45,872 nt of DNA, taken from contig CANLGW010000003.1 of assembly GCA_947490395.1 (NCBI GenBank), positions 1 to 45,872 on the forward strand, in the 5' to 3' direction. Positions 28,812 through 31,167 of this stretch are shown piece after piece. The stretch comes from Alphaproteobacteria bacterium (lineage in GTDB: Bacteria; Pseudomonadota; Alphaproteobacteria; Paracaedibacterales; CAIOTO01). The notes beneath the pieces are model-generated. The model made no database searches. It worked only from the letters and a program-made list of their open reading frames with translations, and was not told the DNA's origin. Every line of letters begins with the position of its first letter. Position 1 is the stretch's first letter. The position numbers were made by a program, and so were the translations under genes.

Positions 28812-29894
28812 ATGTCATTTACCGTTAAACTCGACCGATTGCTGCAGCATTTTGAAAACCTACGAGAAGCTCTTGCAACGCATACAATGTCCGATCCAGG
28901 TGACTTTGCCAAGTTGTCAAAAGAATACTCTGACATGACCGATGTTGCGGAGGCTATTTTATCCTTTCGAAATAAGCAAAAGGAACTTATCGAACTTGAA
29001 TCAATGATGAAGGATCCGACCGCAGACGCTGATATGCGCGATATGATGCAGCATGAAATCTATGCCTTAAAGGAAGAAATCCCCCATCTTGAGCAAACAG
29101 TTAAGTTGCTGTTGCTGCCGAAAGATGCCAACGATGAACGTAATGTTATTTTAGAAGTCCGTGCAGGTACAGGCGGCGAAGAAGCGGGATTATTTGCAGC
29201 AAACCTTCTTCGGATGTATCAACGCTATGCGGCCATTAATGGTTGGAAATTTGAATTACTAAATGCAGCTGACACAGGCATTGGCGGCGTTAAAGAAGCC
29301 TCTGCCTCCATCACGGGCAAGGGTGTCTATGCACGCCTTAAATTTGAATCAGGTGTACACCGCGTACAGCGTGTCCCTGAAACCGAATCAAGCGGCCGTG
29401 TTCACACATCTGCGGCAACAGTTGCGGTGTTACCAGAAGCTGAAGAAGTTGACATTCACATTGATGAAAAAGATCTTCTCATTGATGTGTTTCGCGCCTC
29501 TGGTGCGGGCGGCCAGCACGTCAATACAACAGATAGTGCGGTTCGTATTACCCATCTTCCGACGGGTGTTGTTGTATCCCAGCAAGATGAACGATCGCAA
29601 CATAAAAACAAAGCAAAAGCGATGAAAATTTTACGTGCCCGTCTATATGAAGCTGAGCAAAGCCGTATTGATGCTGAACGGTCAGCAGACCGTAAAAACC
29701 AAGTAGGTTCAGGCGATCGTTCGGAACGTATTCGCACCTATAACTATCCGCAAGGGCGCGTAAGTGACCATCGTATTAACCTGACTCTTTATAAAATTGC
29801 CCAAATTATGGAAGGTGAGGCGTTAGACGAAGTCATCAATGCACTCATCACCGAAGACCAAGCCGTTAAACTTTCTGCTGAGGATAACGAATGA
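28812..29894 (+). CDS. prfA: Peptide chain release factor 1
   Basis: RVQRVPET (PxT), [34 protein letters not shown]. Confidence 0.98.
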
Positions 29895-30862
29895 CACTAA
29901 AGATTCGCGACATTGAATTGGATATGCCTGTCATTTTAGCACCTATGTCAGGTGTTACGGACATGCCATTTCGCCGCCTTGTCAAGCGCATGGGAGCAGG
30001 GCTCGTCATTTCTGAAATGATCGCGAGTCAAGCCATGATTCGCCACACACGCCAGACCATGAAAATGATTGAAAAATCAGAAGAAGAATTACCATCTGTT
30101 GTTCAAATCGCGGGGTGTGACCCTGACGTTATGGCGGAGGCTGCTAAGTTAAACGAAGATATGGGAGCCCACATTATCGATATTAATATGGGTTGTCCTG
30201 TTAAAAAAATCGTTAATACGTATGCAGGTTCAGCCCTGATGCGCGATGAAGATCTTGCTGGACGTATTATGGACGCCGTTGTAAACGCTGTTAAAATCCC
30301 TGTCACGCTTAAAATGCGTACAGGCTGGAATGACGACAATCGAAACGCACCAACCCTAGCAAAACGTGCCGAAAACGCCGGCATTCAAATGATTACTATT
30401 CATGGACGTACACGCTGCCAACTTTATACAGGACGTTCAGACTGGGAATTTATCCGCCAAGTAAAAGAAGCTGTCGGCATTCCTGTTATTGGTAATGGTG
30501 ATGTGATTACGGAACAAGATGCCGTTACATTATTAGAAAAAAGCGGCGCTGATGGTGTCATGATTGGACGCGGCGCATATGGACGCCCATGGTTTATTAA
30601 CCAAGTTGGCCATTTCCTTAAAACAGGTGAATATTTACCAGACCCAAACCTTAAAACACAATATACCATTCTTGAGCAGCACGTCGACGATATGCTCATT
30701 CATTATGGTGAAGAGGCGGGTTCTAAGATTGCCCGCAAACACATTGGATGGTATAGTAAAGGTCTTGACTGTTCCGCCGATTTCCGTGTTCGCATCAACC
30801 AAACTGAAACTGTGCATGCACTTAAAAATGAAATTAAAAACTTTTACGGATCCCTATGTTAG
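29891..30862 (+). CDS. dusB: tRNA-dihydrouridine synthase B (NifR3)
   Basis: [48 protein letters not shown]. Confidence 0.96.
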
Positions 30863-31167
30863 CTCGTGCCTTACCAACAATTATATACGATGAAACAATT
30901 GCAGAAGCCATTACGGCAGAAGATAAAACCGATGGTCATCAAGAAGGTCTTGGCAGTGTTGTGCACCGTTTTTTAGAATCCTATCTTAATGAGCACAAAG
31001 ATCATTTACCTGAAGGACAACTATATACACTTGTTATGGGTGAAGTTGAAAAACCCCTTATCAAAGCAACTCTACAGTTAACCGACGGCAATCAAAAAAA
31101 GGCATCTGAAATCCTTGGTATTAATCGTAATACCCTCCGCAAAAAAATAGCTGAATATGGCCTTTAG
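30856..31167 (+). CDS. Fis-family HTH protein resembling the isolated NtrC C-terminal domain
   Basis: LYTLVMGEVEKPLIKATLQLTDGNQKKASEILGINRNTLRKKI; 103 aa; overlaps the dusB stop. Confidence 0.9.
   Translation: MLARALPTIIYDETIAEAITAEDKTDGHQEGLGSVVHRFLESYLNEHKDHLPEGQLYTLVMGEVEKPLIKATLQLTDGNQKKASEILGINRNTLRKKIAEYGL

Follow-up and report, generated by a model that had tools for sequence, protein, structure and literature searches.

We analyzed a stretch of 45,872 nucleotides (nt) of alphaproteobacterial DNA, hereafter the window, which is contig C3 (CANLGW010000003.1) of a 1.58-Mb draft genome (GCA_947490395.1; 94 contigs, 92.7% complete) from a Holosporales-like order, and focused on a stand-alone gene of 103 amino acids (aa) that lies directly behind dusB at positions 30856-31167 of the forward strand, on which all window features given below are encoded. 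This gene, which we call the Fis-like gene, is functional and under purifying selection. Its product is likely the C-terminal domain of an alphaproteobacterial (alpha) NtrC, left behind dusB by deletion of ntrB and most of ntrC and serving as a Fis-like DNA binder. By the comparisons described here, this NtrC-derived stand-alone protein arose within the Alphaproteobacteria, independently of the Fis of Beta- and Gammaproteobacteria (beta/gamma Fis).

Sequence relationship to NtrC and Fis

A preliminary description of this DNA had located the open reading frame (ORF) correctly and had recognized both its Fis-type helix-turn-helix (HTH) and its overlap with the dusB stop codon, in which the ATG of the Fis-like gene precedes the end of dusB by 7 nt (30856-30862). 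The protein matches the Pfam family HTH_8 (PF02954, 'Bacterial regulatory protein, Fis family') with 58.1 bits against a cut-off of 22, over residues 62-101. It falls below the cut-offs of the NCBIfam models for beta-type Fis (NF002517, 63.4 versus 122 bits) and for gamma Fis (NF001659, 70.4 versus 99 bits); in a 201-genome sample the latter model gave 105-180 bits to true Fis and ~62-85 bits to alpha NtrC tails. The NtrC model TIGR01818 is matched only at its last 79 positions (384-462 of 463; 51.3 bits), the ORF contains neither a receiver nor an AAA+ domain, and no Sigma54_activat match was found at the locus.

The preliminary description had also seen a resemblance between a segment of this protein and the tail of alpha NtrC, which is borne out by sequence comparison. 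In a class-wide survey of 300 genomes, the best matches were the last ~80 residues of proteins of 480-550 aa at 45-55% identity, on a par with the matches to short proteins of the order itself, and one alpha NtrC reached 58% identity over 73 residues (E value 7e-25). Over 75 aligned columns, the median identity was 49% (range 44-57%) for 54 alpha NtrC tails, 41% for 39 beta/gamma Fis and 38% for 16 NtrC tails from outside the alpha class. BLASTP aligned only the last 48 residues with Escherichia coli Fis (54% identity, E value 3e-18). With 11 alpha NtrC proteins, the alignment began at residue 2 of the Fis-like protein in five cases, at residues 8-10 in five and at residue 30 in one, thereby reaching the AAA+ end and the linker. 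Because the alignments run into these two regions, we conclude that the whole ORF corresponds to the last ~100 residues of NtrC. Residues 2-28 (30859-30939), collinear by BLASTP with the AAA+ end and linker and modeled with low confidence, would then be an unstructured N-terminal relic.

Alignment further identified a one-residue insertion, L51-P52 (Pro52, 31009-31011), which places a conserved proline in the loop that connects helix A to helix B and marks alpha-type NtrC tails. This 'LP' insertion is present in all 54 alpha NtrC tails (with proline in 53; 53 of 53 when the single row of genome G278 is excluded), in 20/20 proteins of the order, in 34/34 other alpha stand-alone proteins and in 5/5 intermediate forms. 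It is absent from 39/39 beta/gamma Fis, 16/16 NtrC tails of non-alpha Pseudomonadota and eight of the nine stand-alone proteins from Nitrospinota, and E. coli Fis shows the same gap in the HMMER alignment.

NtrB, NtrC and gene order

That the locus lacks ntrB and the receiver and AAA+ domains of NtrC had been noted from the window; the observation extends to the genome, where tblastn with an alpha NtrB/NtrC pair recovered no orthologue of either protein from the 92.7%-complete assembly. The best match of alpha NtrB was the kinase adjoining ntrX (29% identity over the kinase core), and the sole NtrC-specific match was the 103-aa ORF itself, at 57.5% identity to NtrC residues 399-471. The genome holds three HTH_8 matches: the Fis-like ORF, an NtrX on contig C1 (NF051870, 606 bits, cut-off 600; gene context kinase-ntrX-trkA) and an FlbD-like activator on contig C63 (702 bits, cut-off 750). 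The genome also carries rpoN and glnA; a search of the 92.7%-complete draft for P-II found none. The TIGR01818 cut-off was not used to call absence, as none of 61 order genomes passes it and a Caulobacter control also fails. A GlpT/UhpC-type sugar-phosphate transporter gene and a PBP1A gene lie upstream of the ntrY-like kinase gene in this glnA-, rpoN- and ntrX-bearing genome (contigs C1 and C2). Loss of NtrBC from intracellular alphaproteobacteria and Pelagibacterales is already in print (PMC3870248, PMC4251998).

The order dusB-ntrB-ntrC, which the preliminary description took as typical of Alphaproteobacteria, occurs in 15 of 19 alpha loci with a full-length NtrC, but it is not peculiar to the class: all 15 loci fetched from non-alpha Pseudomonadota without Fis have it, as do metagenome-assembled genomes (MAGs) from Myxococcota and Geobacter. 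In each of 23 named alpha loci with 3 kb of downstream sequence, ntrC is followed by ntrY (and by ntrX where the locus reaches), in keeping with PMC9409073, which places ntrYX downstream of ntrBC in many alphaproteobacteria. The corresponding order with a short gene in the middle, dusB-short gene-ntrY(-ntrX), was observed in 7/20 order loci, in five other alpha loci (one from a Ca. Odyssella MAG) and in 3/3 Rickettsiales loci, Ca. Megaera venefica included. Across the order, an NtrX-type activator begins 1.8-2.5 kb beyond the short gene on the same strand in 16 of 40 genomes, representing 6/10 families. Only in the window's genome, its nearest relative (G004) and G009 is the Fis-like gene followed by a dehydrogenase gene, which holds the place that ntrY-ntrX take in other families; since ntrY-ntrX are not adjacent in the window's own family, the gene-order argument rests on relatives. 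An ancestral dusB-ntrB-ntrC-ntrY-ntrX run would thus have lost ntrB and the receiver and AAA+ parts of ntrC, with the tail remaining directly behind dusB.

Phylogenetic placement

Trees of the tail and of dusB, a check that the preliminary description had proposed, nest neither the Fis-like protein nor its dusB within gammaproteobacterial dusB-fis. In the dusB tree (108 rows, 326 columns, quick search), the beta/gamma sequences form a clade with a Shimodaira-Hasegawa-like approximate likelihood-ratio test (SH-aLRT) support of 99, and the dusB of the window falls in a 34-row clade (SH-aLRT 95) that comprises the order, the Rickettsiales, a few other alphaproteobacteria and one ntrBC-linked dusB. 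A more careful tail tree was computed from 75 columns of 93 rows, which the author selected from 192. It contains a 98/88 split. One side holds 17 beta/gamma Fis, nine non-alpha NtrC tails, four tails from other phyla and two Nitrospinota proteins; the other holds every alpha stand-alone row (36) and every alpha NtrC tail (24). Constraining the order proteins to join beta/gamma Fis cost 69.1 log-likelihood units, with a p value of 0.0275 in the approximately unbiased (AU) test, which is only moderate.

Conservation and selection

A short stand-alone homologue is found in 39 of 40 genomes of the order, spanning 10 families and 17 genera, with frames of 76-136 aa and E values from 1e-57 to 8e-11; the remaining matches in these genomes (E value of at least 1e-6) are the HTH regions of activators of 435-481 aa. 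Surveying the genes downstream of dusB in relatives, as had been suggested, placed the short gene directly behind dusB in 20/20 fetched order loci. Of eight loci in the window's family, seven keep the overlapping ATG (offset -6). Elsewhere in the order (12 loci), the ATG closest to the dusB stop is found between 40 nt inside dusB and 40 nt beyond the stop, and at most 40 nt downstream in 11 of these loci. The order alignment holds 19 invariant columns, the DNA-contact residues described below among them, and residues 1-28 show no conservation within the order. Lake and freshwater metagenomes from other studies also contain DNA identical to the locus.

Comparison of 103 codons with the nearest relative, which is 89% identical, gave a nonsynonymous rate (dN) of 0.059 and a synonymous rate (dS) of 0.958, hence a dN/dS of 0.061; for dusB the same pair of genomes gave 0.030. 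Order-wide conservation and a dN/dS of 0.06 argue for a functional, selected gene rather than a remnant in decay. Compared with other members of the genus, the lineage formed by the window's genome and its nearest relative has evolved its Fis-like protein ~3x faster than its dusB (dN ~0.19-0.31 versus 0.06-0.12).

These data change one part of the earlier proposal, which held that a deletion of ntrB and ntrC had re-created a dusB-fis arrangement at this locus. Gene order, collinearity, the LP insertion and the trees all point to a liberated NtrC tail behind dusB, but the event is old and order-wide instead of local. As the gene is present in 39 of 40 relatives, which span 10 families, the deletion would predate the diversification of the order. 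Rickettsiales and other reduced alphaproteobacteria appear to have arrived at the same outcome, through events that were either shared or parallel.

Predicted structure and function

An AlphaFold2 model of the Fis-like protein, built from a 23-row alignment, has a mean predicted local distance difference test (pLDDT) score of 75, rising to 80-95 over residues 31-103. Four helices are predicted: helix A (residues 32-46; 30949-30993), helix B (residues 56-75; 31021-31080), and helices C (residues 80-87) and D (residues 91-101), which by the model and by alignment to Fis form the HTH (31093-31158). Residues 1-28 have pLDDT below 50 and no strands, and no Fis-type beta-hairpin arm is predicted, although the low confidence of this region leaves some doubt. 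In a Foldseek search of the PDB, all of the top 31 rows listed were Fis chains, the best being 1eto, 6p0s and 6m10 with a root-mean-square deviation (rmsd) of 1.8-1.9 Å over 71 columns. Profile matches were likewise obtained to Pseudomonas aeruginosa Fis (8e-23), E. coli Fis (3e-21) and the DNA-binding domain of Salmonella NtrC (1NTC, 2e-4).

A two-copy model of residues 29-103 scored 0.68, as against 0.00 for the best of three controls, a pass that may stem from likeness to solved Fis dimers; this mark is reached by 20 of 30 proteins solved as one-chain pairs and by one of 23 solved as single chains. Contacts agreed to at least 94% between runs, the partner pLDDT was at least 84, and the modeled interface runs along helices A and B into helix C, with helix A contributing residues 31-44 and helix B the core. 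Six residues of the Fis-like protein, N79, N90, R91, T93, R95 and K96, align in BLASTP with N73, N84, R85, T87, R89 and K90 of Fis (offset 6), which PMC7166090 lists as the DNA-contact residues of Fis. N79, R91, T93, R95 and K96 are invariant in the order alignment, and N90 is at least 90% conserved.

We consider that the Fis-like protein is most likely a sigma-54-independent, Fis-like dimeric DNA binder. Two chains would intertwine via helices A and B into a Fis/NtrC-type dimer that displays two HTH units with the DNA-contact residues of Fis kept, and this dimer would bind, and probably bend, DNA at Fis/NtrC-like sites. With no receiver and no AAA+ domain of its own, and with neither NtrB nor P-II found, the protein should be unable to sense nitrogen or to drive sigma-54. 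From this we infer that it binds DNA constitutively as a dimer and that expression of its translation-linked operon determines its activity. There would be no phosphorylation switch and no sigma-54 activation, so that the protein would act by occupancy or DNA architecture, and its amount would follow expression of the prfA-dusB operon, as Fis works, though it is not an orthologue of beta/gamma Fis. The N-terminal beta-hairpin arm of Fis is needed to stimulate invertases; since the Fis-like protein has no such arm in the model, invertase stimulation is not expected of it. The motif recovered for Caulobacter NtrC by chromatin immunoprecipitation and sequencing is similar to the E. coli Fis motif, according to a preprint (bioRxiv 10.1101/2023.06.06.543975). 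Within the window, the Fis consensus GNNYAWWWWWTRNNC was not enriched (six sites versus 4.1 expected, a number reached by 27 of 100 shuffles), which is uninformative.

Whether the regulatory scope of the protein would be global, like that of Fis, is close to an even call that we lean slightly against, and a role as a nucleoid protein is putative. A protein of the same origin might instead have a narrow role, retaining the operator-binding or repressor function of NtrC at a few old NtrC sites (for example at glnA or the dusB-ntrYX operon) as a local transcription factor. The gene stands immediately upstream of ntrY-ntrX in 6/10 families of the order, glnA is kept in the genome and the tail is nearest to NtrC, not to Fis; the unenriched Fis consensus and the armless model point the same way. 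However, with neither NtrB nor P-II found, such a nitrogen regulator would have no input, the gene is carried, like fis, on a translation-related operon, and in the window's family it is parted from ntrYX yet still strongly selected. We regard this narrow role as rather unlikely, and as less likely than a global scope.

Number of truncation events

Short forms behind dusB were also found in other families of the class and in several named MAGs. For 16 alpha genomes sampled from other families, a short form gives the sole match at an E value of at most 1e-6 with no full-length NtrC alongside, and we conclude that it replaces NtrC and does not accompany it. Other alphaproteobacteria carry intermediate forms, namely receiver-less AAA+-HTH versions of NtrC of 331 aa (genome G110) and 352 aa (G060), and a 172-aa tail piece (G091) that is sister (100/97) to the full-length NtrC of its own family. 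In a further genome (G089), NtrC is split into two frames, possibly by a frameshift or an assembly error.

On our reading, truncation occurred several times, and one of these events is old and was inherited widely. A single ancient truncation, with the dusB-Fis-like-ntrYX block inherited or passed among host-associated lineages, could also explain all alpha stand-alone forms. Such a history is in line with a 26-row group (SH-aLRT 90) of the 192-row quick tail tree, in which 13 of the 20 order proteins join 13 stand-alone proteins that are not among these 20 rows, several of them from other alpha families; the careful tail tree keeps those rows unresolved on one side of an 89/81 split, and the dusB of the order, of the Rickettsiales and of several others fall in one clade (95). 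In contrast, the dusB tree requires at least five changes of architecture among 57 alpha rows, the 172-aa form pairs as sister with the full-length NtrC from the same family, NtrC versions of 331 and 352 aa lack a receiver, and the Rickettsiales and several other short forms lie outside the order's group in the tail tree. The branches that speak for repeated truncation rest on few columns or on quick-search support. We judge a single event unlikely without being negligible, and favor several truncations.

Weighing the origin

Transfer of a beta- or gammaproteobacterial dusB-fis operon would account for a gene order equal to that of E. coli, for the Fis chains that head the matches among solved structures and for the name 'DNA-binding protein Fis' that JGI gives to a 90%-identical protein. 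Yet the dusB of the window belongs to an alpha clade (SH-aLRT 95), apart from the clade of beta/gamma dusB (99), the 98/88 split of the tail tree parts all alpha rows from beta/gamma Fis, and the AU test argues against joining the order proteins with them. The LP insertion missing from all 39 beta/gamma Fis, the score below the cut-off of the gamma Fis model and the ntrY-ntrX pair downstream in relatives are equally at odds with an import, which is very improbable and close to refuted. A neutrally decaying ntrC fragment, still open by chance, would fit a piece of a larger gene whose first 28 residues are poorly conserved and modeled with low confidence, but it is refuted by the retention of the gene in 39 of 40 genomes and 10 families, its dN/dS of 0.06 at a dS of ~0.96, its 19 invariant columns with the DNA-contact residues among them, a start codon conserved within the family and identical DNA in the metagenomes of other studies.

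Several points weigh against the origin from an NtrC tail and the function that we favor. In the window's own family, ntrY-ntrX lie apart, on contig C1 beside trkA, and the label 'ntrY' derives from position and from tblastn to the kinase next to NtrX, with no NCBIfam model reached at its cut-off. One genome of the order (G032, 70% complete) yielded no short homologue in the tail search. Absence of ntrB, ntrC and P-II means 'not found' only, in a draft that is 92.7% complete. As to the trees, 75 columns leave most inner branches of the tail tree unsettled and its bootstrap has not settled, the quick tree was known before the AU test was made, and a long branch (0.86) of unresolved placement leads to the protein of the window and its nearest relative in the 192-row quick tail tree. 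The Fis consensus lacks enrichment in the window, and dimerization, DNA binding and bending by members of the family are predictions.

Comparison with known systems

The closest counterpart is the Fis of Gamma- and Betaproteobacteria (E. coli, PDB 1ETY/3IV5; P. aeruginosa, 6M10), which is likewise small, stand-alone and encoded directly after dusB. The two share a four-helix fold with a C-terminal HTH, as predicted by the model at an rmsd of 1.8-1.9 Å over 71 columns, and conserved DNA-contact residues. For the Fis-like protein, an intertwined homodimer is predicted by a model that may owe its score to likeness to solved Fis. The two differ in that the Fis-like protein is a non-orthologue by its model score (70.4 versus 99 bits) and is separated from Fis in both trees, contains the LP insertion of alpha NtrC (absent from 39/39 Fis), has no predicted beta-hairpin arm and is covered by BLASTP over its last 48 residues only. 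With the C-terminal domain of alpha NtrC it shares 44-57% identity, collinearity from residue 2, the LP insertion and the slot between dusB and ntrY, as seen in relatives, whereas receiver, AAA+ domain and NtrB partner are missing and neither phosphorylation nor sigma-54 activation would occur.

Stand-alone HTH_8 'Fis family' proteins of other phyla, such as those of Nitrospinota, have the same domain, a length of 89-122 aa and 42-46% identity to the Fis-like protein, but they differ in having no dusB upstream, in lacking the LP insertion in 8/9 cases and in grouping with non-alpha tails. The nine Nitrospinota proteins form a clade of their own (support 95-100) beside a Methylomirabilota NtrC-like tail. 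NinH of phage lambda, described as a Fis mimic in PMC7166090, is also a small dimer built on the Fis/NtrC HTH, in which the contact residues are the same; it differs in comprising the HTH part only, in using another dimerization element and in being phage-borne.

Gene run at the locus

The Fis-like gene belongs to a run of five genes (28812-32721) whose successive stop-to-start overlaps of 4, 7, 11 and 16 nt amount to extreme packing. The run is headed by prfA (28812-29894), encoding peptide chain release factor 1 (Pfam PCRF 230 bits, RF-1 150 bits), whose stop overlaps the start of dusB by 4 nt. The dusB gene (29891-30862), the alphaproteobacterial nifR3, encodes tRNA-dihydrouridine synthase B (Pfam Dus 347.8 bits; NCBIfam TIGR00737 429.5 bits, cut-off 293.3). 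Next comes the Fis-like gene (30856-31167), which profiles, conservation and model identify as a stand-alone C-terminal dimerization and HTH domain of alpha-type NtrC. Its stop is overlapped by 11 nt by the start of the 3-hydroxyacyl/3-hydroxybutyryl-CoA dehydrogenase gene (31157-32044; Pfam 3HCDH_N 193.7 bits, 3HCDH 105.6 bits), and the run closes with a 230-aa ORF (32029-32721; TTG start uncertain) that matches only a C-terminal DnaJ (J) domain, at 39 bits. The N-terminal half of this ORF is rich in Cys, His and Trp and matched no family.

The 7-nt overlap suggests translational coupling, and the Fis-like gene is probably both co-transcribed and translationally coupled with dusB. A scan of 28300-34200 for promoters and terminators remained at chance (15 promoter-like sites versus 14.6 expected and eight terminator-like sites versus 5.1); because promoter-like sites are at chance level, an internal promoter in the prfA-dusB run cannot be claimed. 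In one freshwater metatranscriptome library, three contigs are identical to prfA, to dusB and to 30836-31083, respectively. The last of these (248 nt, depth 3.7) covers the end of dusB and codons 1-76 of the Fis-like gene, with fewer than 31 letters on the dusB-only side, and so does not strictly bridge the two genes. As these are contigs only and DNA carry-over is possible, they are weak evidence for expression of the Fis-like gene, and stretches that these RNA-library contigs leave uncovered, such as 31084-31167, carry no information. Further downstream, 1.9 kb beyond the Fis-like gene, lies prmA (33043-34029). In E. coli and five other gamma loci prmA adjoins dusB-fis upstream, and it is near dusB in no other alpha locus examined; its proximity in the window and in gamma dusB-fis loci is probably a coincidence.

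Implications for the origin of Fis and for alphaproteobacterial symbionts

Fis is a textbook nucleoid-associated protein, and its derivation from NtrC rested on one sequence comparison from 1998, in which Morett and Bork reportedly proposed that the gamma lineage acquired the tail of an alpha NtrC by transfer. In our comparison, which included a single glnA-linked gamma NtrC (that of E. coli, on a very long branch), beta/gamma Fis and its dusB group with the non-alpha dusB-ntrBC loci and not with alpha loci, and the LP insertion is missing from Fis. Because of this grouping and the missing insertion, truncation in place in a beta/gamma ancestor appears, on sequence evidence, to fit better than import from an alphaproteobacterium. 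We tentatively suggest that liberation of the NtrC tail at dusB is a repeatable route, taken several times in Alphaproteobacteria (in the Holosporales-like order, in Rickettsiales and in reduced lineages from gut and freshwater) with intermediates still visible, and that beta/gamma Fis may itself be an own-lineage truncation in place instead of a transferred alpha tail. In two genomes dusB and fis form one frame, of 513 aa in a Burkholderiales MAG and of 499 aa in G407; these could be fusions or sequencing errors, and relatives from the same families have separate genes.

The Fis-like protein had been presented as a rarity in a class without Fis, which does not hold: the same architecture is found in Rickettsiales and several other reduced lineages, and close relatives already bear automated annotations, which read 'DNA-binding protein Fis' or 'GlnG' at JGI and 'helix-turn-helix domain-containing protein' at NCBI. 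To our knowledge, Fis is regarded as absent from Alphaproteobacteria, symbionts of the Holosporales and Rickettsiales type included, though we know of no citable sentence to this effect, and a search of the full-text literature returned no statement on the taxonomic limits of Fis. Nor did the full-text literature, supplements excluded, yield a paper on a stand-alone NtrC tail or a Fis-like gene downstream of dusB, be it in Holosporales, in Rickettsiales or elsewhere in the Alphaproteobacteria.

The mechanism is not new; the locus is a clean natural replicate of a classic domain liberation, and it bears on the origin of Fis. The orders before and after the event, dusB-ntrB-ntrC-ntrY-ntrX and dusB-tail-ntrY-ntrX, are both alive today. 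This makes it testable what an NtrC tail does by itself, released from phosphorylation and sigma-54, how fast such a tail gains global, Fis-like behavior, and whether beta/gamma Fis came from an alphaproteobacterium. For symbionts of the Holosporales and Rickettsiales type, the finding adds an unrecognized, predicted DNA-binding protein to very small sets of regulators.

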